Notes: generated by a model not told the origin, from the letters alone. A stretch of 64,000 nucleotides of DNA from Patescibacteria group bacterium (GCA_018822435.1 JAHJKD010000050.1:1531-65530); one strand, 5' to 3'; counted from the stretch's first letter, positions 2,087 to 29,758 are shown. Translations and numbers: made by a program.

Positions 2087-2116
2087 GGGTGGGAAAAGGA
2101 AGGAAGGCGCCGCACA

Positions 2117-3265
2117 TCAGATCTCCGACGGATCCGGGACATCCGTATGCCACTCCGCGGGAATCTCGAATCCAGGCAGGAGCCGTTCGACCGTAGGCAT
2201 GTCCCGCCGGACCATGGCCCAGTAGGACTCGGCTGCTTTCGCCAGGAGGGGATGGGGCTCGCCGCGCCGTGCGAACGGGGCATCGATGGGCTTGGGATTG
2301 AGGCTGCGTTCCAGCCATTCGAGGTAGGCGTCGCCCTCGCCGTCATGGAAGACTCCCAGAGGCGGGTTCTCGTTGGTGGCTCGCATCACGGCCTGTACGG
2401 GCACGAAGCCGGACCAGGATCCAGAGACCGAAAATCCCTCGGCCTCGACCAGTTCGTGGCGGCTGACAGGCTTCTCTGCCACCGTGACACCCATGTGCTC
2501 GAAGATCTTGATCATGGTGGCCCGCGTCAGCCCGGGCAGGCACCACGAGTGCAGGTCAGGCGTGACCACGGTGTTCTCGTCCTGGAAGACGAAGAACAGG
2601 TTGGATCCGGTCGTCTCAGCCAGATCGTCTCCTTCGTGCGTCATGCCCAGGACTTCGTTGCAGCCGTACCACTTGGCCACCACGCCCTTGAACTTGGCGC
2701 CCAGGGGGTAGTTGGCCGCCGACTTGATGTGCGGGTAGCCGTTGTAGGGGCTGGCCCGCCGGAACAAACGTCCCGGGAAAAGCAAGTTGATGCCGAATTC
2801 GCCCTCAGGCAGTTTGAGGTACTCAGTCAGATCACGCGTGATGATCTGCCAGTCGGCCGTGCCCGTGGCGTGCACCCCGAGCTCTTCGCCCCAGGCCCCG
2901 CCGAAGATGCGGAGGTACACGTCCTGGGCCTGAGTCAGCTCAGCTGCGTTCAAAGAGGCAATCTTGACCATGGCCGTCAGAACTTGCTCGGCCGTAGGAA
3001 TCGTCTCCCGCGGCAAGCCCAGGGCCATCATATTCCGAACCAGTCGCCGAGCGTGGTCCGGACCGCGGAAGATGCGCCGCTTGCCGTCCGCGCACATCCA
3101 GGCTCCGGCCCCGCCGAAGATGCGTGTGCCGTAGTGGCCGTCGTGCCGGTACGGGCTGTGCCCGATCCCGCCGGTCTCGCGAATCTCGCCCTGGACGATC
3201 ATGTGGGTGTGATGGTAGGAACCATCCGCACCCTCGAAACTGTAAACCAAAGGCTTGACGCCCAT
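2117..3265 (-). CDS. Class IV (BCAT/DAAT-fold) aminotransferase-like protein; GC-rich island gene
   Basis: 382-aa ORF. The segments HDGHYGTRIFGG, HIKSAANYPLG and TGSNLFFV...TPDL...LPGLTRATMIKIFEHMGVTVAEKPVSRHEL...SGSWSGFVPV align in my reading with IlvE-type HALHYGTSVFEG, AAKAGGNY and GENLFEV...PGITRD...E. SD-like GGAAGGA lies about 10 nt upstream. The fully overlapping plus-strand ORF 1946..3289 is treated as a GC shadow. Confidence 0.75.
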   Translation of the reverse strand: MGVKPLVYSFEGADGSYHHTHMIVQGEIRETGGIGHSPYRHDGHYGTRIFGGAGAWMCADGKRRIFRGPDHARRLVRNMMALGLPRETIPTAEQVLTAMVKIASLNAAELTQAQDVYLRIFGGAWGEELGVHATGTADWQIITRDLTEYLKLPEGEFGINLLFPGRLFRRASPYNGYPHIKSAANYPLGAKFKGVVAKWYGCNEVLGMTHEGDDLAETTGSNLFFVFQDENTVVTPDLHSWCLPGLTRATMIKIFEHMGVTVAEKPVSRHELVEAEGFSVSGSWSGFVPVQAVMRATNENPPLGVFHDGEGDAYLEWLERSLNPKPIDAPFARRGEPHPLLAKAAESYWAMVRRDMPTVERLLPGFEIPAEWHTDVPDPSEI

Positions 3266-3405
3266 TTTCTTTTCCTTCCGTTAATGTGAGTTGTCAATTA
3301 ACTTTCTTATAATAAAACAGACCCCTCCTTTTTAGAACTCCTTTTTGGTCTGTATTAGCTTGTTTAAATTACTGGAAATACTAAAAAAAATCAAGCTTAA
3401 GTGAT

Positions 3406-3434
3406 TTGACATAAGCCAGGTAAAATAATAAGCT
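3406..3434 (+). promoter_or_regulatory. Sigma70-like promoter for 3475..4332
   Basis: TTGACA (3406-3411), 17-nt spacer, TAAGCT (3429-3434). Confidence 0.45.
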
Positions 3435-3474
3435 TTGGCCACCTTGACAACCTACCAAAAGGAGGGGGAAACCC

Positions 3475-4332
3475 ATGAAACTCACGACCGCACTGGTCAT
3501 CGCGTCCGCCATCACCTTCACTCCGTTTTGCTTCGCACAGATGGATGAAGGGCCCGAACCCGGGGCTGTCCGGTCACCGGGCGAGCCTGTCGACATGTGC
3601 CGCAGCCTTTATGGCTGGGTGCCCTGTTCCGAGGATATGGAGATCACTCATGTCTGTTTCGACCGGTCTTCCAGCTTCAACTGCCTTGACTGCACCATCA
3701 CCATGGCCCTGCTCGGCGTTCTCGATTCCGACCCGCAGAGCATGATCAACACGACCGCCGGCTGCCTCATGAACAACTTCACCCCGGAAGCCTGGGCCGA
3801 ACTCGAACACTGGGAGAAAGACTACACCAGCTCCCTGGGCCCGGCCTTGGCTGGCAAGGACATCGCCGACCTGCTCCAGAACAGTGTTTACATGGCCCGG
3901 TTTGCTTCCTACAATCTCATCTGCAAAGACAAGACCGAGGTGATCCCAGAATCCTTGACCGAGTACGTCACTTTCTGGCGAGAATCCTCCTGGGATGATC
4001 GCGCCCCCTTGCCGGTCATGATCGCCGAAGCTGCTTTTGAAGAGCATCTTGAAGCTCAAGCCTACCTCTTCTCCTTCAACTGCCTCGCCTTTTACCCGCG
4101 CACGCGTGGCAGCCCGCCCATCTACTTCACCCCGGAAGAAGACAGCGAAGCCGAACTTGGAGCCGCCTTGGTTGCTTTCCTTGCCCATCAAAAAATCACG
4201 GCCATCGCCGTGATCAAGGACTCGCCGGAGCAAGCTGCTCTAGAAGCCAAGGACTGGAAGGTCTGTCCTTCTGCCGCCACTGACAACTTCAACGTCGTCA
4301 TCCCCCCACCGATCGTCTACCACTTCCTCTGA
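3475..4332 (+). CDS. Secreted hypothetical protein; GC-rich island gene
   Basis: 285-aa ORF with signal-peptide-like N-terminus MKLTTALVIASAITFTPFCFAQ. Strong SD AAAAGGAGGGGGAAACC ends 1 nt before the ATG. GC-ending codons throughout. No family recognised. Confidence 0.7.
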   Translation: MKLTTALVIASAITFTPFCFAQMDEGPEPGAVRSPGEPVDMCRSLYGWVPCSEDMEITHVCFDRSSSFNCLDCTITMALLGVLDSDPQSMINTTAGCLMNNFTPEAWAELEHWEKDYTSSLGPALAGKDIADLLQNSVYMARFASYNLICKDKTEVIPESLTEYVTFWRESSWDDRAPLPVMIAEAAFEEHLEAQAYLFSFNCLAFYPRTRGSPPIYFTPEEDSEAELGAALVAFLAHQKITAIAVIKDSPEQAALEAKDWKVCPSAATDNFNVVIPPPIVYHFL

Positions 4333-4457: not shown

Positions 4458-5030
4458 ATGCCTTCAAGAGAACCAAGTTTTGATTCACAACCAAAAACAA
4501 CAATCGAACAAAAACTCGAACAAAGAACTGACATTCTTGATGATCAAGCATTAACAGAAAAATACAAAGGTGGAATCCAAGTAGATTCATATCCAGTAAA
4601 ATCATCAGCTGACGGCCAATGCATGGCCCAGGAAACCAATCTCCGACTCCCAACTGAATAAACTCGAAGCACTTCAAGCAGAGACACTGTCACGCTACCA
4701 TTAGAAAGTAAAAATTTTTATAAAAATGAAGCAGACCCTAATGCCTCAGATCAATTAGCGTATCACTTTAAGGATAAATACGCTGATGTAAATGGAAAGG
4801 TCGTCCGCGTTGCCCGGCTTATAGGAACTGATAAAGGAGAAAAGTTCTTAATGACATTAGACTATGACATGGAAGGCAATGAAACAACAAAAACAATCAT
4901 GGATGCAAACGGAAATATTCTTAGTACAATGGATCGCCGACAAATAGAAAAACCCGGTAAAAATCTGCCGAACATGGAATTAAAATTTGATATTAAAGAC
5001 GGCGAAGAACAGGTTACCCTAAACTGGTAA
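4458..5030 (+). pseudogene. Hypothetical protein reading frame interrupted by one in-frame TAA (4659-4661)
   Basis: The track lists only 4458..4661 (67 aa). My translation shows the same frame stays open after the TAA to a stop at 5028-5030: ...TRSTSSRDTVTLPLESKNFYKNEADPNASDQLAYHFKDKYADVNGKVVRVARLIGTDKGEKFLMTLDYDMEG...EEQVTLNW. The total of 573 nt is an exact multiple of 3. Confidence 0.5.
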
Positions 5031-5603
5031 TTTTTTATAAGTCATCTTTTTAAGATCTTGCCACCAATCCGTGCTATTGGTGGTTTTTATTTTCTCAATC
5101 ATTTCTTTGGCAGAATCAGTCTCCACGGCTTCAGCTATTTTCACCACCCAGTCATTCATAGATTCATAGCCTTGCTCGGCAAATTCTTTCGCGGTCATGG
5201 CCATTTCCACCCAGTCGGCGTCCTTAGCAACTACTCCCTCTTTTTTGTCCCTGGAATTAAATTCTTTAAAATATTCCAATAATTTTTTCTCAATCTCTTT
5301 AGGCAAATTTTGTACTTGTTCTTCATAAGCTTTCTGCTCTGGTTCAGAATGATCCCAATATCTCGCCCCGACTTTATGCTGGTCGCCCACCCGGCACTCG
5401 CCAATATCATGAAATAAAACCATGCAAGCCGTTTTCTCCTCATCCGCCCCTTCCAGGCCGGCCATGACATAAGCGATGATCGCCGCCCGGCAGGTATGGT
5501 CGGCCAGTGAGTCAGGATCTTTCACGCCCGCCAAAATCGAGCCAGTATGCCTCTGCCTTTTCAATACGCCCATCTCATAAAAAAAATTAACGATTTTTTC
5601 CAT
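5019..5603 (-). CDS. HD-domain phosphohydrolase (YfbR-like 5'-deoxynucleotidase family)
   Basis: 194-aa ORF with ...LADHTCRAA...LFHDIGECRVGD... (H...HD...D metal-binding pattern). Confidence 0.8.
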   Translation of the reverse strand: MEKIVNFFYEMGVLKRQRHTGSILAGVKDPDSLADHTCRAAIIAYVMAGLEGADEEKTACMVLFHDIGECRVGDQHKVGARYWDHSEPEQKAYEEQVQNLPKEIEKKLLEYFKEFNSRDKKEGVVAKDADWVEMAMTAKEFAEQGYESMNDWVVKIAEAVETDSAKEMIEKIKTTNSTDWWQDLKKMTYKKLPV

Positions 5604-5973
5604 ATATCTCTCTTGGTTTATCTTGTTCTAAAAAATCTCCTAAATCTCGCTGCAAAACGTCAAAACTAAGAGTGTCTCGAAACATGAATTCTCCATTTTC
5701 TTTTTTTGCTTCCCATACCATTACCGCAAAATTCTTTAAATCTTCTTGCAATCCCTTGATAATTTTCTTGGAAGGATTCGGACCACAAGTCGAACGATCC
5801 AAAGCAAAACCATGATCAATCTGACCTCCGACATCCCATATTTCTCGACTTCCCTCGTAAGGTTCATCAGCATCAATATATTCATATAAAAAACGAAAGG
5901 CATCATTTAAGGCCTTCAAGTCATCTAAGTGGCTTATGAGGCTTAAAAATGTTGTAAACTCTTTTTCAGTCAT
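5587..5973 (-). CDS. Hypothetical protein
   Basis: 128-aa ORF. Its start overlaps the Elp3 stop (ATGA) and its end overlaps the HD gene start, so the three genes look like one operon. No family recognised. Confidence 0.6.
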   Translation of the reverse strand: MTEKEFTTFLSLISHLDDLKALNDAFRFLYEYIDADEPYEGSREIWDVGGQIDHGFALDRSTCGPNPSKKIIKGLQEDLKNFAVMVWEAKKENGEFMFRDTLSFDVLQRDLGDFLEQDKPREIYGKNR

Positions 5974-7508
5974 ATATTTTTTACCATATAATTATCCTCT
6001 AAATTATAACCCAATTTTCGATAATAGTCCCTTACACCTACTCCGGAGATAACCCAAAGATTGTCATGGCCAGCTTTCTTAGTCAGAGCTTCTGCTTCAG
6101 CCAATAATTTCTTGCCGAAACCAAAATGCTGGACTGCCTTTTCGCCTTTTGCCAGCTCCAGCATCTGCCCATAAGTATGAAGCTCACGAATAAAAGCTTT
6201 TTCTCCCAATCTCAATCGACAAAAAGCAAATAAATATTTTTCATCAGAAGATTCATAAGTTAAAAATATTTCTTTACCGCCTGAAGCCACATAGCCTCTT
6301 TTTACTAACTTGGCCTCACTCAAATCTACTTTAGCCTCACGCGGCTCTCTACATCTGATGCATTTGCACTCAACTCCCCCATCTTGAAGTAATTGCCTCA
6401 AATTAGACACAGTGCTTCCCGCCACGATCGACTCCTGGGGAATATCGCGAATTAATCTCGCAATCCTGACATACTCAGGCATCTCTTTCTTTACCTTTTT
6501 AAGCAATCCTACCAATTCTTCAGTAGTATATGGCTTATACTTTCCCTCTTTATACCATTTATATAATTCCGATCCTTTCGTGACTACGCACGGATAAATT
6601 TTAATCTGGTCTGGCTTAAAATCCGGATTTGTAAATAACTCCCGGAACATCTTATGGTCCTTATCCAAATCAGAGCCCGGCAGATTCGGCATCATATGAT
6701 AAGTTATTTTAAATCCGGCATCTTTTAATAATTTAGTCGCTTGAATAGTTTGCTCTACTCTATGCCCTCTCTGGTTTAGGTCTAAAATATCATCATAGAC
6801 AGTTTGCACGCCCAGCTCGACCCGAGTCGCCCCAAAATCTAACATACGCTGCACTTCTTTTTCATCTACATAATCCGGCCTGGTCTCCAGAGTTAGCCCC
6901 ACCACTCTATGTTCTGCTGTCTCATTTAGTTTCTTAGCCTCTTCCAAATCTTTAGATTCTTTTTTATTATAACCATCATAACAACGCTTAATAAAATCCT
7001 CCTGATATTCCGGCGGCAAGCAAGACCATGTTCCGCCCATCACAATCAACTCACACTTATCTGTCGGATGACCATTGTCATACAAAGCCCGCAGTCTCAT
7101 TTCCACTTGCTTATAGGGATCAAACTCACATAAAACTGCCCGCATCACCGCTGGCTCATTAGAAAGATAAGATTTAGGCATGTCTTTTTCCGTAGGGCAA
7201 TAAACACATTTTCCCGGGCAAGGATGTTCGCGAGTTAAAACAGAAATCACTGCCACACCCGATAAAGTTCGGACATCTCTTTTTCGAAGCATTCTAAAAA
7301 GCTGTTCGTCTTCTTTTATCTCCCCTTTTTTTACTAGAGATCTATATGCCTTAAGAATTTCCGCATTTGTCGCCATGCCTGTGCCATCTTTCTTGGCAAT
7401 CTCTCCTTTTATACGTCGAAGCTGGATCACGTTCTTGGGCTTTTCTTTTATGGCTAATTTTACCAATTCTTCTAGGGCTTTTTTCATAGGGTTATTATAT
7501 ATGAACAT
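5970..7508 (-). CDS. elp3: Elp3-family radical SAM / GNAT acetyltransferase (tRNA U34 cm5-type modification enzyme homolog)
   Basis: 512-aa ORF. Radical-SAM cluster motif CPGKCVYCP, then a TIM-barrel-like region and a C-terminal GNAT motif QHFGFGKKLLAEAE. This is the Elp3 architecture. Confidence 0.85.
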   Translation of the reverse strand: MFIYNNPMKKALEELVKLAIKEKPKNVIQLRRIKGEIAKKDGTGMATNAEILKAYRSLVKKGEIKEDEQLFRMLRKRDVRTLSGVAVISVLTREHPCPGKCVYCPTEKDMPKSYLSNEPAVMRAVLCEFDPYKQVEMRLRALYDNGHPTDKCELIVMGGTWSCLPPEYQEDFIKRCYDGYNKKESKDLEEAKKLNETAEHRVVGLTLETRPDYVDEKEVQRMLDFGATRVELGVQTVYDDILDLNQRGHRVEQTIQATKLLKDAGFKITYHMMPNLPGSDLDKDHKMFRELFTNPDFKPDQIKIYPCVVTKGSELYKWYKEGKYKPYTTEELVGLLKKVKKEMPEYVRIARLIRDIPQESIVAGSTVSNLRQLLQDGGVECKCIRCREPREAKVDLSEAKLVKRGYVASGGKEIFLTYESSDEKYLFAFCRLRLGEKAFIRELHTYGQMLELAKGEKAVQHFGFGKKLLAEAEALTKKAGHDNLWVISGVGVRDYYRKLGYNLEDNYMVKNI

Positions 7509-7535
7509 CGAATTTTAGACGAACTCGAATTAGTT
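7509..7535. repeat. Left arm of the 27-bp inverted repeat flanking the GxxExxY gene
   Basis: CGAATTTTAGACGAACTCGAATTAGTT. The reverse complement of 8356-8382 is CGAATTTGGGACGAACTCGAATTAGTT, giving 25/27 identity with an 18-bp perfect core. Confidence 0.85.
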
Positions 7536-8324
7536 CCTAATAAAATTCCAATTTAATCTTGTCCTATTGAAGTTTGCAATTAATCCTAGCTTAATATTAA
7601 AATATTTCAAGTTTTTCTTCATTTTTTCAATTTCAATTTCTGATATTTCTTTCACTGCTAAAACTCTAACTAATATTTTATTTTCAATAAAAAATAATTT
7701 TACATCGCTTTCCCCAAGGATTTCTCCCTTAAAAGACATGGATTTTTTCTTTTTATACAAAAAGGGAATGCCATTATTTCTTAATTCTATCCATAAGGCC
7801 CTTCTATATACATAATGAAAAAATCCTGGCCCTAAAATTGAATGAACTATTAATAAACAATCAAGAACATCTTTCGATAATCCTGGATAAAGCAAATCAG
7901 GTTTAATAGTTATTTCATTTTTTGGTTTAAAATTTTTATTTTTTAATTTTAAATTATTTATAACTCTCTCATACTGTGCCTTTTCTGATCCAAAATTCAT
8001 TAATATTCCTAAGGAGTAATCAGTAACTTTCAAATAAGAAATTAATTGGGCGATATTAATAGGATGAATTTCATCTCGCGCCTTCAATTCTAAAATTATT
8101 TTATCTTGCACAACAATATCAGGACGACAAAATCCTATTTTATGTCCTTTATAAAGCATGTCTAAAGGTTTCTCTAAAACAAAATTAATTTTCTTTTTGT
8201 TTAAACCAATCGCCATTGCTTTCTGATATATTTCCTCTTTATGTCCTGGGCCAATTTTATTATAAACATCATAATAGACACCTTGTACTAAATAAGATAA
8301 TTCCGGAAAAATAATTTCAGTCAT
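7530..8324 (-). CDS. Tandem GxxExxY-domain protein (PD-(D/E)XK nuclease-like superfamily)
   Basis: 264-aa ORF made of two homologous halves. The first half carries GHKEEIY (GxxExxY). The second half is degenerate (GFFHYVY). Confidence 0.75.
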   Translation of the reverse strand: MTEIIFPELSYLVQGVYYDVYNKIGPGHKEEIYQKAMAIGLNKKKINFVLEKPLDMLYKGHKIGFCRPDIVVQDKIILELKARDEIHPINIAQLISYLKVTDYSLGILMNFGSEKAQYERVINNLKLKNKNFKPKNEITIKPDLLYPGLSKDVLDCLLIVHSILGPGFFHYVYRRALWIELRNNGIPFLYKKKKSMSFKGEILGESDVKLFFIENKILVRVLAVKEISEIEIEKMKKNLKYFNIKLGLIANFNRTRLNWNFIRN

Positions 8325-8355
8325 AAAATATATGGATAATTAATAAATAATTAAA

Positions 8356-8382
8356 AACTAATTCGAGTTCGTCCCAAATTCG
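8356..8382. repeat. Right arm of the 27-bp inverted repeat flanking the GxxExxY gene
   Basis: AACTAATTCGAGTTCGTCCCAAATTCG, the partner of 7509-7535. Confidence 0.85.
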
Positions 8383-8512
8383 GTGTTCATATTCCTCATA
8401 CCAATTCGCGCCCGCGTATGATTCGCGGTAGTCTTCGCGATTGCCAATAAAAAAACGCCCAATGTTTGCCATTTGGACGCCGTAGTTATATATTAAAGGA
8501 AAGAATAACATT

Positions 8513-9190
8513 ATGCAACCATCGCAAGCTCGTGAAATATTGGCCCAAGTTAAGGCTGATTACGATAAAATTGCCCCTCATTTTGCTCAAACCAGGGCAC
8601 AAGGCTGGTCAGAATATGAGGAATTTAAGCCCTATTTAAAAAAAGGCGACGAAGTCTTGGATTTAGGCTGCGGCAATGGCCGTCTTGTTGAATTCCTAAT
8701 TCCTCTTGGAATTAAATACACAGGCTGTGATAATTCTAATCAATTATTAAAATTTGCGTCGGAAAAATATACTGACACCAAATTTGTCGTCGGTGACTTC
8801 ATGCATCCCCCTTTTGAAAAAGAAGAGTTTGATGTGGTCATGGCCATTGCCAGCTTGCATCATGTTCCTTCAGGGGAATTACGCCTGAGAGCCTTAAAAG
8901 AAATTTATCGTATTTTAAAACCAGGTGGATATCTGCTTATGACCAATTGGTATCTTTATCAAAAAAAATATAAGAAGTATATTAAAAATAATAAGGGCAA
9001 AATGGACAAAGGTGACGCCATAATCCCCTGGAAAGACAAATACGGAAATACCCAAGCAGAAAGATATTACCATGCCTTCAAACAAAAAGAGCTCAGCAAG
9101 CTAGCTAGGCAAATCGGTTTTAAAGTTATTTCCCAAAATATGAACGAATCAAAACAAGAAAGAAATATTGTCAGCATTTGGAAAAAATGA
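8513..9190 (+). CDS. Trm9/ALKBH8-like class I SAM-dependent methyltransferase
   Basis: 225-aa ORF. YDKIAPHFAQTR, LDLGCGNG, FDVVMAIASLHHV...RLRALKEIYRILKPGG, AIIPW and RYYHAFKQKEL align block by block with yeast Trm9 (YNEIAPHFSQTR, IDVGCGNG, FDFAISIAVVHH...GG, VFVPW, RYYHLYREGEL) as I recall it. Confidence 0.75.
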   Translation: MQPSQAREILAQVKADYDKIAPHFAQTRAQGWSEYEEFKPYLKKGDEVLDLGCGNGRLVEFLIPLGIKYTGCDNSNQLLKFASEKYTDTKFVVGDFMHPPFEKEEFDVVMAIASLHHVPSGELRLRALKEIYRILKPGGYLLMTNWYLYQKKYKKYIKNNKGKMDKGDAIIPWKDKYGNTQAERYYHAFKQKELSKLARQIGFKVISQNMNESKQERNIVSIWKK

Positions 9191-9232: not shown

Positions 9233-10603
9233 ATGACTTTTCGGAGGATCAAATGGTTCAGTATAGGCACCCTTATCGGGTCCCTTTTAGTACTGGCCCT
9301 ATCCATTCCTGTTTTAGCACAGGATAACACCAACGAAGAACCCTTAATTTCGCCTGATACGGAAACAGTATCAACTGATGCTACTGCTACCACTACTGAT
9401 GGTTCAGATGCAGTCGAAGAAGTGCCCGAAATCGTACCTATTAGCGCCGAACTTGGAAACGAAACCGTAACTGACATTGATTCTGATGTAGAAGAAACTG
9501 AAGTGCTCGGGACAACTACCTTTAAAACTGGTGAGACGGTAAACGTAACTGGCACTTATGATAATGATGTCATTGTCGCCGGAAACAACATAACTATTGA
9601 TGCTGTTGTTGATGGTGATGTTCTTGCCATGGGCGGAACAGTCACGATTCGGGGCCGCGTTGAAGGCAATATTCGCGTGATGGGTGGAACTGTAAATATT
9701 GAGGGTGAAGTAGCCAAAAATGCAACTGTCTCTGGCGGTTGGATCAATGTGGCTAACACTGCCAAAATAGGAAAAGATGCCATGTTCTGGGGCGGAACTG
9801 TAAATATTGACGGTGAAATCACTGGCAGCTTATTTGGCGGAGCCGGAACAGTTACTTTAGACGGAATTATTGGAGGAAATGTTGATGTTGAAGTTGGTTC
9901 TTTGAATGTTGGCAGTAAAGCCAATGTCACCGGCGACTTAAAATATAACGCTGGCCAAGATGCTTCCATTAGTTCCTCTGCGACAATCAACGGTGAAACA
10001 ATAAAAGTGGATCCAGCCACTGCCACTGATGATGCTGATACTGTAAAAAAAGATGACTCTAATTTAAGCAAGCAAATCGGCTGGAAACTTGTCTGGTGGG
10101 TTAGCAATCTGCTTCTCGGCTTGCTTCTAATTTACGCTTTCCCGAAATGCGTCAAAGGCACAGGCAAAGCTATGTTTGCAAAGGCCGGTCATTCTTTCCT
10201 CTGGGGCTTGCTTGTCTTATTTGTCACTCCGATCGTCCTACTAATTCTAATGGTTACAGTTATTGGCATTCCAATTAGTATAATCGGCTTTATCGCTTAC
10301 GGCATCGGCATTTATCTGGCCTCTATTGTTTTAGGCATCGCTCTAGGTAACAAGATTTTGCCAAAAATGGAAAATCCAATCCTCCCTATGGTTATTGGTG
10401 TAACTATTATCTATATTCTTGGCTTAATACCCTTCCTAGGTGGATTAGTCGGCTTTGTGGCTGCTCTCTGGGTACTTGGCGCTTGGATGGTTTATATTAA
10501 ACAAAAAAAAGAAGCCCAGAAAGAAATGAAGATGGAAGAGAAAGAAGAAAAAAAGCCTGCCAAGAAAATTTCTAAAAAAACAGACGCTAAAAAGAAGAAA
10601 TAA
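9233..10603 (+). CDS. Membrane-anchored protein with bactofilin-like (polymer-forming, beta-helical) repeats
   Basis: 456-aa ORF. N-terminal signal/anchor, then repeated G(D/N)V...V.I.G.V.G units, four C-terminal TM helices and a Lys-rich tail. Confidence 0.65.
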   Translation: MTFRRIKWFSIGTLIGSLLVLALSIPVLAQDNTNEEPLISPDTETVSTDATATTTDGSDAVEEVPEIVPISAELGNETVTDIDSDVEETEVLGTTTFKTGETVNVTGTYDNDVIVAGNNITIDAVVDGDVLAMGGTVTIRGRVEGNIRVMGGTVNIEGEVAKNATVSGGWINVANTAKIGKDAMFWGGTVNIDGEITGSLFGGAGTVTLDGIIGGNVDVEVGSLNVGSKANVTGDLKYNAGQDASISSSATINGETIKVDPATATDDADTVKKDDSNLSKQIGWKLVWWVSNLLLGLLLIYAFPKCVKGTGKAMFAKAGHSFLWGLLVLFVTPIVLLILMVTVIGIPISIIGFIAYGIGIYLASIVLGIALGNKILPKMENPILPMVIGVTIIYILGLIPFLGGLVGFVAALWVLGAWMVYIKQKKEAQKEMKMEEKEEKKPAKKISKKTDAKKKK

Positions 10604-24718: not shown

Positions 24719-27700
24719 CTAAACTTTTTTCTTAAAAGTCAGTCCTCTTTTCCTGGTGTAGAAGAACATGAATATCGCGAAAGCCACTATCAGGCTCAGA
24801 TTGACTATGAACAGCCACATCGTTTTGGACAGGCCCTGGCCTTCTTCCGGTATGACGAATTTACCCAGCACGATCTCATCTGTTTCCACTCCGTACAATT
24901 CCGACTGGGCGTAAACGGTATGTTCGCCCTCGGGCAGCAATTCCATGGGCACGCGGATTTCCCAGCGGCCGTATTCATCCGCCTTAGTCACCCTAACCAC
25001 TTCTTCAGACCTTATTTTCACAGTCACGGTCGCATGAGGCAAAGTCAAGCCTTTAAGCACCAACTCCGGACCAGATACATTGATCAATGTCTGAATATTT
25101 CCCTCTTCATCAATATATTCTTCAATGCCCGGCACATCCCCGTAAGTCGCCTCAAAGAAATCCATGCCTTCCACATTGGTGTCATTCACCATTAAAAGTT
25201 TCAAGAAATTTTCCATGGTTTCTTTCAGTTCCTGCCGCTCTTCTTCGGTCTGGGGCGGCCTGATGTCGCGCGGAATTTTTATTTCCTCTTCATTTACAAT
25301 TACAATGATAAATTCTTCCTCTTCTTCCTCCTCAAATGCGAGCACGATAGTTTGCCCGGCTGATGAATGTCTGCTCACCGACGTATAAGCGGTCGCCGTA
25401 GCTGCGAAAGAGGAAGGCCCGAATACTTCCGCGTAATAAACGCCGGAACCAAGTCCGTAAAAAGTCAGTTCGCCATTTTCATTGGTTACTCCGGACGATA
25501 CTTTGTAGCCGTCTTTATAGATATAGACATAAGATCCGGGCAATGGATCCCCGATCGGATCTTGTACATAATAAGATAAAGTAGAAGTCTCGATCGGATT
25601 GCTGGTCATGTTAGAATTGGTCGCGGCCGATGCCTCATTAGATGAAAACGCTGCTTCACTGCCTACCACGGCTGAATTGAAATTCGGATTAATAACCCGA
25701 ACAACAAAGTAGACCGATTTTGTCTCTCCCGGCGCGATCGCTGTATCGCTGAAATCAAGCGTTGTACCGTTTACATTAAGATCTCCGCCATATGAGGAAA
25801 GATAGGTTCCTGATGGGATATAATCGCGAATATTTATAGATGTCGCATCGCCATCGCCCGTATTTCTATATGTCAGGGAATATTTCAGATAATTTCCCGG
25901 TTCAACTGGCACGCCGTTGTCGTCAGCTGCCTTAATGACCGGACTAAATATTGCAAACACGACCAAGGCGGCCGTAATTACGCCGGCGCCGACAGCGGCC
26001 CAGTGATTTGTTTTGGCATTGCCCCGGAACTGATCGTAAGACATTTGCCAAGTGCCCTTTTTATTGGCCGGGGCGATTTTCGAGAACGACCGGGCCGGAC
26101 TCCTGAATATGACCAGGTGCGGTTTTTTTAAGCCACCGGATAAAAAGAGGGTCACCAGAAATAGCGTCAGGAATATAAATAAAAATGACCAAAGAGGTAT
26201 CTGATAAGCCGAGTAATCAAGCTCGCGGAATTCTACATTTTCATTCCCTGTCGCGGCCATGGCCATTTTAATGAACTTATTAAGCCAGGTCAGCGGAGCC
26301 GTGCCTACTGTAACAATTTTTGTAAGGGATATTTCCGGATCAAGCGAAGTATTTACATAAAACTTCTTCGCACCAGACCATTCTCCTTTCAATCCTTCCG
26401 GATCAATCGCCCGCACAGTCCAGTAATAATCTGTTTCATCATTCAATTGATTAATCACGTTCACTTCCGGGCTGCCCGTGGCTGACGTATAGGAATATTC
26501 GTAATTATTGGCCGGATCAGAATTTTTCCCTATCCTTACCCGGTAATAAAGCTGGGACTTGCTGTGGTCCGGGTCGCTGGGCGCGTCCCATTTCAGGGTC
26601 GGCGTCTGGCTGGAAGTGGTGGAGTTATTTGGTGGTGAAAAACCTGAAGTTATCTTATTAGGCGGATCATTGACATTGTTGACGGTCAGGGTCACCTGAT
26701 TGGAATTCCTCGTATCTCCCTCGGTATCTATCGCCTTGAAAGTGACCGTAGCCGTGCCGTACCAGTTCGATTTCGGGGTAAAGGTCACTTTATTCTCGCT
26801 GCCGATGCTGACAGTAATATTGGCCGGGCTGTCCGAACCCAGCACTTCATAATGCATGGCCAGGCTCCTCAGGTCCTGGAAATAGTCATCCAGGTCAAAG
26901 GCCTTTGTCAAGGTCGTATCTTCATTCCATTGCTGGTTCGGGATCGTCCCGGTCTGTATTATATTTGAAGTAGAAGTCGTAAACACGGTGCAATTCGAAT
27001 AATTAGAGTAATTGCCATAAGAATTTTTATAGCGCACGTGCCACCAATAGGTCGCGCCCTTGGCCAGACTGCCGTACGGGACCGTGTAAGAGGTATTAGC
27101 GGCCGCGTCCCCCGTATTTAGAACGGCTCCGGAATCGGCCGCGCACTGGGAAGACGAATTATAAACTTTCCACTGTGAAGCGGCATGCGTCTCAGCCGCG
27201 TCCGCAAAAGCAGAAGCCGATAAAGCCACGTCTGTTTTTTGGTCAACTGATCCATTAGCCGGAGATGTATTGGCTGGCTGGTCCGGCACAGTGGAAACGA
27301 TCGCATCAGCGATCTGATACCGCCATACTCCGTCTGTATCATAATAAGAAGGCAGACCGCCTGGATTCGTATCATCGTCCTTGCCATTAAAAGTAAAAGT
27401 CGGATTCAAAGAATCATTTGCATAGTCGCCATAAACCTTGATAGTAAAAGGACCGTATTCAGTTTTTGAACCGTTTACGTCATATTCATAATCAGTAATA
27501 TAAAACCAGGTCGGTTCGTCATCGTATTCAAAGCTGGCCGGCCCCCACGCGCCCTGATCAGTATCACCAGCCGGATAGGGCGGATTCGTAAAAGTGCCAT
27601 TACTTAAAGTGGAGCCGCTGTAAGTGGCGCCTGACTGGGGAATCACAGAAACCGTATTGCTGCCGGATTTTATCGGATTCAGGTCCTTATATAAGATCTC

Positions 27701-29758
27701 AACTGCTCCCCACCAGGTCGAGCGAATGTCAAAATTATTATTATTATTACCGATATTATTATCGGTTAAAAGCGTTGTCTCATTAGCCGCTCTGGTATCA
27801 ACAAATAAAATACCGCCGTCCGTATTGCTGTTAATCGTATTTTCCACGCCGCTACCGCCAATATCAGGCTTTGAAACCAAATCATAAGAATGTCCGATCG
27901 GCGTCTGCTTATCATAATAAGGATCATAATGATTCGGTAAATCATCTTGATTCAGGGCATGGTCAAGAGTTCCGGCCGCATAAATACCATAATCTGCATT
28001 ACCGGTCAGAGTATTGCTTTCCAAAGTCATGGTTGATCCTTCAAGAAAAACACCTGAACCGCCATTACCTGATATTGTATTGTCTCTTACGATTGGTTCT
28101 TCACCCGGAGTCTGATCAAGATTATAGTCTTGGGCAAAAATTCCATGAGAAGAATTATTGGAAATATCATTATTTTGAATTATATATCCCGCGCCAGGAA
28201 ATCCAGATGAAGAATAAACCATGCGCATAACAACACCATAGGTATTATTTTTTATAGAATTTGTCCGATTGCCTGCCGCCCCAAAATAATCATTGCCTCC
28301 CGCTTCTCCCGCTATTATATTTATGCCCATATAATTTGGAATACTGGAATCATCTTTTCCAATACCAAAATAATTTCCATAAATCATGGAATCATCTCCC
28401 ACAATATGAGAAAATAACATACCGCTGCCATCATCAGCCGGATGTGAATCAGATATTCCTGTATTCCCAATAAAATAATTTCTTTGGTCGGCTAATAATC
28501 CCGCATTTGAGCACATGTTCACGGCCCAGCCTAAATCATCTGTATCATCGCAATAGCCGATGATATTACTATAATGATTATAAATAAATCTTACGCCCTG
28601 TTCTGTTTGTCCAGGTGCTGGAGTATAAATATCACTTGTTCCAGTCGGATCTCCTCCAATAATATTTCCTGATACACGATTATGATGAAAGCCCGGATTT
28701 GTGTCCTGATCAAATCCAAAAAAGGTACCATAATCATAACCCGCCCCAACATTGCCTTCTGAACTATCATCAACTCCGTCTCCATCTGTACCAATCGTAT
28801 TATATTTAGCATCAGTATATAAATATACTCCAAAAGCCAATTCTCCATAATGGACAATAGCAGAGCCATCAGGCCGAATATTAAAATAATTACCTGACAC
28901 TTTATTTTCCTGGCTGCTCCATCCTATAAAAAGTGAATCAGTATTTTGGTCATCGCCAGCTGCAAAAATATTCCGGGCTTGTGCCGCCGTACAAGAAAAA
29001 GCCGGATCATCATCAAAGCCGGTAATATTCTCATCCGAATTATAATAACGCAATGATGCGCCATTATTGCTATTCCAAGTCGTCCCGTTATCATCCAATG
29101 CAAACCAGTTGCCGGCCACATGATTTCTGTCCGCCACTAGCATGTAGATGCCGTTTCCTGAAGAAATTGCTCCCACAATATTATTGCCCACAATAACATT
29201 TCTTTGATGACTGTCAGGCGTACCAAAACAATCCAGTCCGATCTGGCTGTCTTCTGCCCTAAAAAATATTCCATTATCATCAAAGCCTTCCACTTTCAGT
29301 CCGCTAATGCGCGAATTATCAGCCGCATCATTAAAATACAATCCATTAAGGCAAGTTCCCGTTTTTGTTATACGAATTCCAGGTCTATCATTAATTGTAT
29401 CCCATTCATTTTCCGCTGTTAGAATTAAATCTTCATTTACGTTTGGCAACTGGCCCTGTCCGTCGCCGTCCACGGTAATGGTCACCTGGCTGCCAGCCAC
29501 AGCTACACCGGCAAAATCAACAGTATCTAATCCTGGATTTCCATTGGCCGCTGTTATGGCCTCGCGCAAAGAACAGTCGCCAGGATTGCAAGCACCCGGC
29601 GCCGGATCATCGTTCCTGGTGACGGAATAAGTGGCTGCGTATCCGGAAAAAGGCACACAAAGAAAAAGCCCTCCGATTAGGAGGGCCATAAAAAATCCAA
29701 AATATTTAGCATTTTGGCAGTTTTCACCGATGGATGCTATCTTTTTCCACAGTTTCAT
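24719..29758 (-). CDS. Giant (1679-aa) surface protein with parallel beta-helix, FN3/cadherin/Ig-like and DUF11-like modules
   Basis: N-terminal signal/anchor and many NxxGIxx beta-helix turns. Also has ...VTLTVNNVNDPP..., a DUF11-like LKYSLTYRNTGDGDATSINIRDYIP and a CarboxypepD_reg-like segment. There are two internal TM helices and a C-terminal TM anchor. Confidence 0.8.
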   Translation of the reverse strand: MKLWKKIASIGENCQNAKYFGFFMALLIGGLFLCVPFSGYAATYSVTRNDDPAPGACNPGDCSLREAITAANGNPGLDTVDFAGVAVAGSQVTITVDGDGQGQLPNVNEDLILTAENEWDTINDRPGIRITKTGTCLNGLYFNDAADNSRISGLKVEGFDDNGIFFRAEDSQIGLDCFGTPDSHQRNVIVGNNIVGAISSGNGIYMLVADRNHVAGNWFALDDNGTTWNSNNGASLRYYNSDENITGFDDDPAFSCTAAQARNIFAAGDDQNTDSLFIGWSSQENKVSGNYFNIRPDGSAIVHYGELAFGVYLYTDAKYNTIGTDGDGVDDSSEGNVGAGYDYGTFFGFDQDTNPGFHHNRVSGNIIGGDPTGTSDIYTPAPGQTEQGVRFIYNHYSNIIGYCDDTDDLGWAVNMCSNAGLLADQRNYFIGNTGISDSHPADDGSGMLFSHIVGDDSMIYGNYFGIGKDDSSIPNYMGINIIAGEAGGNDYFGAAGNRTNSIKNNTYGVVMRMVYSSSGFPGAGYIIQNNDISNNSSHGIFAQDYNLDQTPGEEPIVRDNTISGNGGSGVFLEGSTMTLESNTLTGNADYGIYAAGTLDHALNQDDLPNHYDPYYDKQTPIGHSYDLVSKPDIGGSGVENTINSNTDGGILFVDTRAANETTLLTDNNIGNNNNNFDIRSTWWGAVEILYKDLNPIKSGSNTVSVIPQSGATYSGSTLSNGTFTNPPYPAGDTDQGAWGPASFEYDDEPTWFYITDYEYDVNGSKTEYGPFTIKVYGDYANDSLNPTFTFNGKDDDTNPGGLPSYYDTDGVWRYQIADAIVSTVPDQPANTSPANGSVDQKTDVALSASAFADAAETHAASQWKVYNSSSQCAADSGAVLNTGDAAANTSYTVPYGSLAKGATYWWHVRYKNSYGNYSNYSNCTVFTTSTSNIIQTGTIPNQQWNEDTTLTKAFDLDDYFQDLRSLAMHYEVLGSDSPANITVSIGSENKVTFTPKSNWYGTATVTFKAIDTEGDTRNSNQVTLTVNNVNDPPNKITSGFSPPNNSTTSSQTPTLKWDAPSDPDHSKSQLYYRVRIGKNSDPANNYEYSYTSATGSPEVNVINQLNDETDYYWTVRAIDPEGLKGEWSGAKKFYVNTSLDPEISLTKIVTVGTAPLTWLNKFIKMAMAATGNENVEFRELDYSAYQIPLWSFLFIFLTLFLVTLFLSGGLKKPHLVIFRSPARSFSKIAPANKKGTWQMSYDQFRGNAKTNHWAAVGAGVITAALVVFAIFSPVIKAADDNGVPVEPGNYLKYSLTYRNTGDGDATSINIRDYIPSGTYLSSYGGDLNVNGTTLDFSDTAIAPGETKSVYFVVRVINPNFNSAVVGSEAAFSSNEASAATNSNMTSNPIETSTLSYYVQDPIGDPLPGSYVYIYKDGYKVSSGVTNENGELTFYGLGSGVYYAEVFGPSSFAATATAYTSVSRHSSAGQTIVLAFEEEEEEEFIIVIVNEEEIKIPRDIRPPQTEEERQELKETMENFLKLLMVNDTNVEGMDFFEATYGDVPGIEEYIDEEGNIQTLINVSGPELVLKGLTLPHATVTVKIRSEEVVRVTKADEYGRWEIRVPMELLPEGEHTVYAQSELYGVETDEIVLGKFVIPEEGQGLSKTMWLFIVNLSLIVAFAIFMFFYTRKRGLTFKKKV

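Follow-up and report, generated by a model that had tools for sequence, protein, structure and literature searches.

The DNA considered here is a stretch of 64,000 nucleotides from a Patescibacteria group bacterium (GCA_018822435.1, JAHJKD010000050.1:1531-65530), which we call the window, and our interest lies in the genes between its positions 5019 and 9190. Two of these genes, on opposite strands and pointing away from each other, carry the story: one encodes Elp3, an enzyme that joins a radical S-adenosylmethionine (SAM) domain to an acetyltransferase domain, and the other encodes a class I SAM-dependent methyltransferase that resembles Trm9. Bacteria, we are taught, use MnmE and MnmG on the wobble uridine of tRNA; 5-methoxycarbonylmethyluridine at position 34 (mcm5U34), along with the route that runs from Elp3 to Trm9, is regarded as archaeal and eukaryotic. 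What, then, might such a pair be doing in a bacterium? The genes and other features of the region are as follows.

8513-9190, plus strand: Trm9-family class I SAM methyltransferase, 225 amino acids (aa), matching Methyltransf_11; predicted carboxyl-methyltransferase of tRNA 5-carboxymethyluridine-34 (cm5U34)
8325-8512, no strand: intergenic stretch 5' of the methyltransferase gene, with promoter-like sites on both strands
7530-8324, minus strand: tandem GxxExxY / PD-(D/E)XK_3 protein, 264 aa, with two stretches matching PF13366 (184 bits) and a match to TIGR04256
5970-7508, minus strand: Elp3, 512 aa, radical-SAM plus acetyltransferase, TIGR01211 at 581 bits; predicted tRNA U34-to-cm5U34 synthase
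5587-5973, minus strand: 128-aa ORFan, acidic and predicted to be helical, with no family and no credible match in the PDB
5019-5603, minus strand: HD_3 phosphohydrolase, 194 aa, the end gene of the cluster (PF13023, 84.3 bits against a gathering score of 22.5)
4727-4748, minus strand: terminator-like hairpin 3' of the HD gene, a 7-bp stem followed by a T-run (a pattern match only)

The region thus holds five genes. Four of them—those for Elp3, the 128-aa protein, the HD hydrolase and the methyltransferase—had been recognized by an earlier sequence-only reading and lie where that reading put them; the fifth, the GxxExxY gene, had been overlooked. It matters for the geometry: the methyltransferase gene is indeed nearby and divergent, as had been said, but it does not abut the Elp3 gene directly, because the GxxExxY gene stands between the two and leaves them about 1 kb apart. 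The same reading had proposed that Elp3, the 128-aa protein and the HD hydrolase are co-transcribed. The Elp3 stop overlaps the start of the 128-aa gene by 4 nt, and the 128-aa open reading frame (ORF) overlaps the start of the HD gene by 17 nt, junctions that are compatible with a single transcription unit of three minus-strand genes; this much fits the proposal, although co-transcription is deduced from the overlaps only. Between the divergent genes, promoter-like matches to consensus (and matches to consensus only) lie at 8466-8494 on the plus strand (TTGCCA-17-TATATT) and at 8447-8418 on the minus strand (TTGGCA-18-AATCAT), but our scan for promoter and terminator patterns returned no more sites than it did in shuffled sequence, and we take all of these sites as weak hints.

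Elp3 is the easier of the two proteins to place. It scores 581.3 bits against the TIGR01211 model, whose cutoff is 350, with residues 16-512 of its 512 aligned, and it matches the solved Elp3 enzymes of Methanocaldococcus infernus (PDB 6iaz, E 2e-140; also solved as 6ia8) and Dehalococcoides mccartyi (PDB 5l7j, E 3e-132). Like both of these it runs in the order radical SAM, Radical_SAM_C and GNAT/lysine acetyltransferase (KAT), and like both it has the cysteines of the [4Fe-4S] cluster (C97-x3-C101-x2-C104), a three-cysteine zinc linker (C381-x-C383-x2-C386) of the kind typical of bacterial and archaeal Elp3 (PMC6367351), and an acetyl-CoA motif of the form Q/R-x-x-G-x-G (QHFGFG, 460-465), joined by a C-terminal YYRKLGY (495-501), each aligning to the KAT domain of the M. 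infernus enzyme. These three sets of residues are kept in 43-46 of 47 full-length relatives, the radical-SAM triad in 46 of them. The cluster motif differs from the archaeal one in its spacing (Cx3Cx2C in the window, Cx4Cx2C in archaea). At the other end of the protein the likeness is to the archaeal side: a basic N-terminal extension of about 75 residues, which the D. mccartyi enzyme does not have (PMC6367351), aligns with that of archaeal Elp3, where it serves tRNA binding (PMC6367351), and lysine and arginine together make up 25% of the first 85 residues. As with the M. infernus and D. mccartyi enzymes, the other subunits of Elongator are not to be expected here. This is a full-length and, as judged from its motifs, apparently functional Elp3.

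How unusual is such a protein in a bacterium? One paper calls stand-alone bacterial Elp3 “rare” (PMC6367351), and another finds Elp3 in “numerous bacteria” (PMC13315578). The window's own Elp3 has no exact protein match on record (its 128-aa protein and its methyltransferase do have NCBI entries, under “Patescibacteria group bacterium”), and the nearest Elp3 loci come almost entirely from metagenome-assembled genomes (MAGs) of Patescibacteria, the candidate phyla radiation (CPR).

The methyltransferase requires more argument. In Pfam it is a Methyltransf_11 protein, but when its sequence is compared with those of the PDB the best match is Trm9 of Yarrowia lipolytica (5cm2_Z; E 3.6e-18, 69 bits, residues 25-208), at about 26% identity, and the same entry is also the best PDB match of two independently built family profiles (85.8 and 89.7 bits). 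Turned around, the comparison gives the same answer: when Yarrowia Trm9 is run against the whole PDB, the best other methyltransferase reaches 28.9 bits, as against 69 bits for the window protein, and when it is run against 846 ORFs from the neighborhoods of the related loci it finds the 38 family members among them (28-63 bits) and nothing else. Among solved structures, Trm9 and the family of the window methyltransferase are thus each other's closest relatives. The AlphaFold2 (AF2) model of the protein is a confident class I fold (predicted local distance difference test, pLDDT, 93), and a fold search with it ranks Trm9 second.

Similarity of this kind would mean less if the residues on which Trm9 depends had been lost. 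Eight alanine substitutions inactivate yeast Trm9, those of R29, D72, H116, W145, W168, R241, Y243 and N271 (PMC4678810), and the window protein keeps seven of the eight residues, and probably the eighth. Their equivalents, with counts from 80 independently retrieved metagenome members of the family, are these:

Saccharomyces cerevisiae R29: window R28, in 78 of 79 members
S. cerevisiae D72 (the acidic residue that closes strand 2): window D73, in 80 of 80
S. cerevisiae H116: window H117, in 76 of 80
S. cerevisiae W145: window W146, in 80 of 80
S. cerevisiae W168: window W173, in 65 of 80, with F in 11 more
S. cerevisiae R241: window R184, in 72 of 80
S. cerevisiae Y243: window Y186, at a position where family members differ (Y, F, H, I)
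S. cerevisiae N271: window N218, in 29 of 32; a probable equivalence, made by pattern

In three independent samples of the family, most of these positions vary little or not at all. The SAM-binding motif I (D50-x-GCGNG) is invariant together with D73, the histidine pair H116/H117 is conserved, and even the spacing near the N-terminus agrees: Y17 stands 11 residues ahead of R28 in the window protein, as Y18 stands ahead of R29 in yeast. The runner-up matches in the PDB, 1ve3 and 3sm3, lack the signature of paired histidines, tryptophan and arginine. That is, with Trm9 (S. cerevisiae; Y. lipolytica, 5cm2), with the methyltransferase domain of ALKBH8 and with Haloferax HVO_1032 the window protein shares the class I fold, the SAM-binding aspartates and the residues of the site of methyl transfer (R, HH, W, an aromatic residue, R-Y-x-H and N); unlike the known members of this group, it is bacterial. 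Both identifications made by the sequence-only reading therefore hold up: Elp3 has the architecture it was said to have, with no key residue missing, and the methyltransferase is Trm9-like by its best structural match, its essential residues and its reciprocal similarity. Profiles do not place it in some unrelated family, and the family's own profiles put Trm9 first; what the Pfam and NCBIfam libraries contribute is generic.

Do the two genes keep company elsewhere? We approached the question from both sides. Starting from Elp3 we had 47 bacterial loci, 42 of which extend at least 700 bp upstream of the Elp3 gene; in 37 of the 42 a methyltransferase of this family is divergently adjacent, and in two more it lies downstream. 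Starting from the methyltransferase, Elp3 is divergent from it in 66 of 69 metagenome loci, with a median of 26 bp separating the aligned N-termini and some of the genes overlapping, and on the long contigs selected in the same way (L056-L059) an Elp3-type gene is divergent at 0-80 bp in four out of four. All other neighbors of the pair vary from locus to locus. The linkage is far beyond chance, and it makes the pair a near-obligate module in Patescibacteria; it is the strongest result of our analysis. Only tens of bases separate the two start codons in most relatives, which makes the genes one divergent unit, and gaps this small (or overlaps) would place each promoter inside the other gene or else call for leaderless transcripts. 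The tight spacing is seen in the loci on the long contigs and in those numbered L060-L139 (for example at L056:5001 and L057:5000/5001), where the divergent start codons sometimes overlap. The window departs from this spacing. A GxxExxY gene sits between the pair here and in the nearest relative, L001 (at L001:1075-1842), and nowhere else; it is an insertion that splits an otherwise contiguous pair, and it is outside the pathway. The head-to-head arrangement with a Trm9-type gene sets the window Elp3 apart from the M. infernus and D. mccartyi enzymes. Its precedent is in Sulfolobus, where the genes for Elp3 and Trm9 cluster (PMC6144793) and where the genomic link is like the one we see (PMC6144793).

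If the two proteins do what their relatives do, the chemistry can be written in two steps. In the first, a stand-alone Elp3 would use its radical-SAM [4Fe-4S] cluster and acetyl-CoA to add a carboxymethyl group to C5 of tRNA U34, giving cm5U34. In the second, the Trm9-family methyltransferase would use SAM to methyl-esterify the carboxyl group of cm5U34, giving mcm5U34, the product that Haloferax Trm9 makes (PMC6144793). We infer both steps by homology, the first from the M. infernus and D. mccartyi enzymes and the second from those of yeast and Haloferax, and what is supported directly is family membership, the conservation of functional residues and the near-obligate linkage. We consider it likely that the window pair is the Patescibacteria version of the archaeal and eukaryotic two-step pathway from cm5U34 to mcm5U34. 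The sequence-only reading had seen a two-step Elp3-plus-Trm9 pathway of the mcm5U type in the linkage of the two genes in this one genome, and the recurrence of the pair in related loci (37 of 42 and 66 of 69) supports it. Because the pairing is conserved across Patescibacteria, the bacteria of this group that have the pair probably make a modification of the mcm5U type, one not known from bacteria.

An awkward point is Trm112. The Trm9 enzymes of eukaryotes and of Haloferax require it as a partner (PMC4678810; PMC6144793). In the window we found no match to its family, PF03966, among 28 small ORFs, for which Pfam returned Cpn10, SecG, AHSA1 and similar proteins. The string YPIxDGIPxL, a Trm112-like motif that we treat as a lead only, has no match in the window or in 135 related loci (L001-L055 and L060-L139). 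In this respect the window methyltransferase is unlike the known Trm9 systems, with no Trm112 gene detected near it in either scan, though one could be encoded in another part of the genome. Its surface offers a possible reason. In Yarrowia Trm9 a hydrophobic patch is buried by Trm112 (V59, F78, V102, A110, P112 and F116), and the aligned residues in the window protein are E47, K68, V92, P100, E102 and F106; across the family, 57 of 80 members have K or R at position 47, and 57 of 80 have D, E or K at position 68. Where the Yarrowia enzyme has the hydrophobic V59 and F78 against Trm112, the Patescibacteria family is thus mostly charged, which hints at an enzyme that stands alone. The substitutions suggest a soluble methyltransferase independent of Trm112, and the window protein may be a Trm112-independent variant of Trm9.

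Several observations weigh against a bacterial mcm5U34 pathway, and we would rather set them out than ask the reader not to worry about them. The known Trm9 enzymes need Trm112, yet our scans of the window and of the related loci turned up none. In the fold search an uncharacterized archaeal methyltransferase, 3sm3, outranks Trm9. The family profiles prefer Trm9 to the other PDB methyltransferases by a narrow margin only (85.8 bits against 79.8 with one profile, 89.7 against 82.4 with the other). The libraries contain no Trm9-specific Pfam or NCBIfam model, and the matches they do give are generic class I matches, those from NCBIfam all below cutoff. Two of the eight essential residues are less secure than the rest, because the position of yeast Y243 differs within the family and N218 is equated with N271 by pattern, without a clean alignment. 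The pairing, moreover, is absent from the eight archaeal and DPANN Elp3 loci, none of which has an adjacent family member (in one, L039, there is a weak 42-bit methyltransferase match about 3 kb upstream). Finally, mcm5U34 in the tRNA of Patescibacteria is a product predicted from genes alone.

What else might the pair be? The methyltransferase might depend on Elp3 and still make something else, acting on another derivative of cm5U, at another position, on another RNA or with an extra partner, so that the end product would not be mcm5U34. There is some sense in this: the final U34 products of Elp3-containing bacteria are not established, Haloferax diverts its cm5U intermediate to other products (PMC6144793), and both the variable tyrosine position and the absence of Trm112 nearby could be read as signs of a changed reaction. 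Yet the residues that have been proposed to hold the carboxylate and the uracil ring of cm5U (R28, H116/H117, W146, R184 and N218) are the very ones that the family conserves, and we think a different product unlikely.

A more deflationary idea is that the methyltransferase is a generic UbiE-like enzyme acting on small molecules and that it sits beside Elp3 through inherited synteny alone, without functional significance. Public labels lean that way: a family profile search returned 1,440 proteins at E<=1e-10, and those listed with a name go by “class I SAM-dependent methyltransferase” or “UbiE.” The one exception, called “alkB family protein 8” by the pipeline of the Joint Genome Institute (JGI), is a precedent for the Trm9 reading. 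The generic library matches can be read as favoring a UbiE-like enzyme, and other genes are syntenic too, SHMT, FolD and RlmN among them. But mere synteny sits badly with a pair that is head-to-head in nearly every locus, from whichever gene one starts, while all other neighbors vary, and a small-molecule enzyme would be an odd bearer of Trm9-specific residues that the other top PDB methyltransferases lack and of a reciprocal score with Trm9 that is over double the best score among the other solved methyltransferases; we regard this idea as very improbable.

Still less can be said for the thought that the Elp3 homolog is not a tRNA enzyme at all but, for example, a protein acetyltransferase: Elp3 once went by the name of histone acetyltransferase, as it still does in PDB entries, but tRNA, and not peptides, is what Elp3 from bacteria, archaea and eukaryotes specifically responds to (PMC6367351), the cluster cysteines, needless for an acetyltransferase, are kept, and the conserved partner is a Trm9-type enzyme, which together make this scarcely credible.

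The last alternative concerns the 128-aa protein, which the sequence-only reading had offered as an accessory or Trm112-like partner. Profile searches find no Pfam or NCBIfam family for it at E<=0.01, and its best PDB match is at E 0.44. A word-indexed search of 5.8 billion proteins found, credibly, only the protein itself, and a HMMER scan that went exhaustively through 1.84 billion representatives turned up no credible homolog, its two marginal matches (a TPR and a SpaA repeat protein) looking like chance similarity between helices. None of the 138 related loci contains it. The protein is acidic and has a single cysteine, so that it cannot form a zinc knuckle; with no Pfam match at all, it leaves PF03966 (Trm112p) unmatched as well. 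Its AF2 model, of moderate confidence (pLDDT 68, from a single sequence), has five helices and no strands, where a Trm112 would have strands in its fold and pair with strand 3 of the methyltransferase, and it matches no known fold at E<0.1. Apart from its size, translational coupling to Elp3 through the 4-nt overlap is the one thing in favor of a Trm112-like activator or some other dedicated subunit of Elp3 or Trm9, and against an orphan that is all-helical, has one cysteine and occurs in none of the related loci it counts for so little that we rejected the candidate; a Trm112-like role is largely refuted, and any dedicated role seems to us barely conceivable.

The HD hydrolase fares no better as a member of the pathway. 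Its closest structures are Archaeoglobus fulgidus AF1432 and human HDDC2, and an HD hydrolase directly follows Elp3 in only one other locus, L019 (9573-10142), so limited a recurrence that we set a pathway role aside. Like the 128-aa ORFan, the HD hydrolase is a lineage-specific passenger of the Elp3 operon and not a component of the pathway. Nor did a defense or phage role suggest itself, since the HD, 128-aa and GxxExxY proteins have no meaningful match in PADLOC or PHROG.

The position that the HD gene occupies deserves a remark of its own. In 13 loci, among them L002, L003, L014, L017, L020, L023, L027, L028, L033, L040, L050 and L052, a gene for a NUDIX-like hydrolase (recognized by sequence motif), in one to three tandem copies, lies directly 3' of Elp3 on the same strand; in the window and in L019 the slot is held by the HD_3 phosphohydrolase. 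With one or the other in the same place, it is a nucleotide-phosphohydrolase gene that recurs beside Elp3.

Other neighbors recur as well. Genes that look, from their ORF sequences, like SHMT and FolD of one-carbon and folate metabolism follow Elp3 in seven loci (L002, L003, L004, L017, L019, L040 and L001), and the window has an SHMT gene, assigned by NCBIfam, in the matching position (674-1972). A gene for an RlmN-like radical-SAM RNA methylase lies downstream and convergent in 14 other loci. On the far side of the methyltransferase, immediately 3' of it, is a gene for a 456-aa protein (9233-10603, plus strand) with no Pfam match; at its N-terminus the protein carries a signal or transmembrane segment, followed by a repetitive middle rich in G-x-V/I, C-terminal transmembrane helices and a lysine-rich tail, and its homologs adjoin the methyltransferase in L036 and L072.

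A word is also needed on taxonomy. Many records from the third-party annotation (TPA) “binchicken” MAGs, titled uncultured Gammaproteobacteria, Bdellovibrionales or Saccharibacteria, carry Elp3-methyltransferase loci of the CPR type at about 50% identity (they include L004, L005, L014, L016, L017, L023, L025 and L027), and loci of this type make the taxonomic labels of those records look unreliable.

As for the window itself, its other genes are those of an ordinary bacterial chromosome (RNase J, GroEL, RecA, UvrA, UvrC, PcrA, FtsK, MurD, TrpRS, GuaA and SHMT), and it also contains a 1679-aa ORF (24719-29758, minus strand). Between the HD gene and SHMT there is a GC-rich island with sharp edges (2101-4300), mostly 55-66% GC apart from one 300-bp bin at 46%, in a window that is elsewhere about 40%. 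It holds a class IV aminotransferase gene (2117-3265, minus strand) and a gene for a 285-aa protein with no assignment (3475-4332, plus strand), and it has the look of foreign DNA or of a chimeric assembly.

How does the proposed pathway compare with the one that bacteria are expected to have? The MnmE/MnmG system, which makes 5-carboxymethylaminomethyluridine-34 (cmnm5U34), acts, like the Elp3 route, on C5 of the tRNA wobble uridine and to the same end in decoding. The enzymes and their chemistry are unrelated: a GTPase, flavin adenine dinucleotide (FAD) and methylene-tetrahydrofolate (THF) on one side, radical SAM and acetyl-CoA on the other. A scan of the 20 largest ORFs in the 64-kb window turned up neither MnmE nor MnmG, and our search of the literature returned nothing on MnmE, MnmG or GidA in CPR bacteria. 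Nor did the literature we searched contain any paper that ties Elp3 or Trm9 to Patescibacteria. Stand-alone bacterial Elp3 was already known, as were archaeal Trm9 and mcm5U; what the window adds is a bacterial Trm9-type member paired with Elp3. One could go further and suppose that much of the Patescibacteria decodes with mcm5U34 made by a module of just two genes, Elp3 and a Trm112-free Trm9, and that this module may take the place of MnmE/MnmG. We regard that idea as less likely than not, and we offer it tentatively.

Even the narrower proposal, that the pair is a Patescibacteria version of the two-step pathway, has consequences. It offers a specific function for more than 1,000 proteins, of which those listed by name nearly all carry generic methyltransferase labels. 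If the family is truly free of Trm112, it would provide work on the structure and mechanism of cm5U methyl-esterification with a simple and soluble Trm9. And from the conserved Elp3-Trm9 module one would expect a major, still poorly understood branch of the bacteria to use a chemistry other than that of MnmE and MnmG at the wobble uridine, which would be a further archaeal-like trait of the Patescibacteria.

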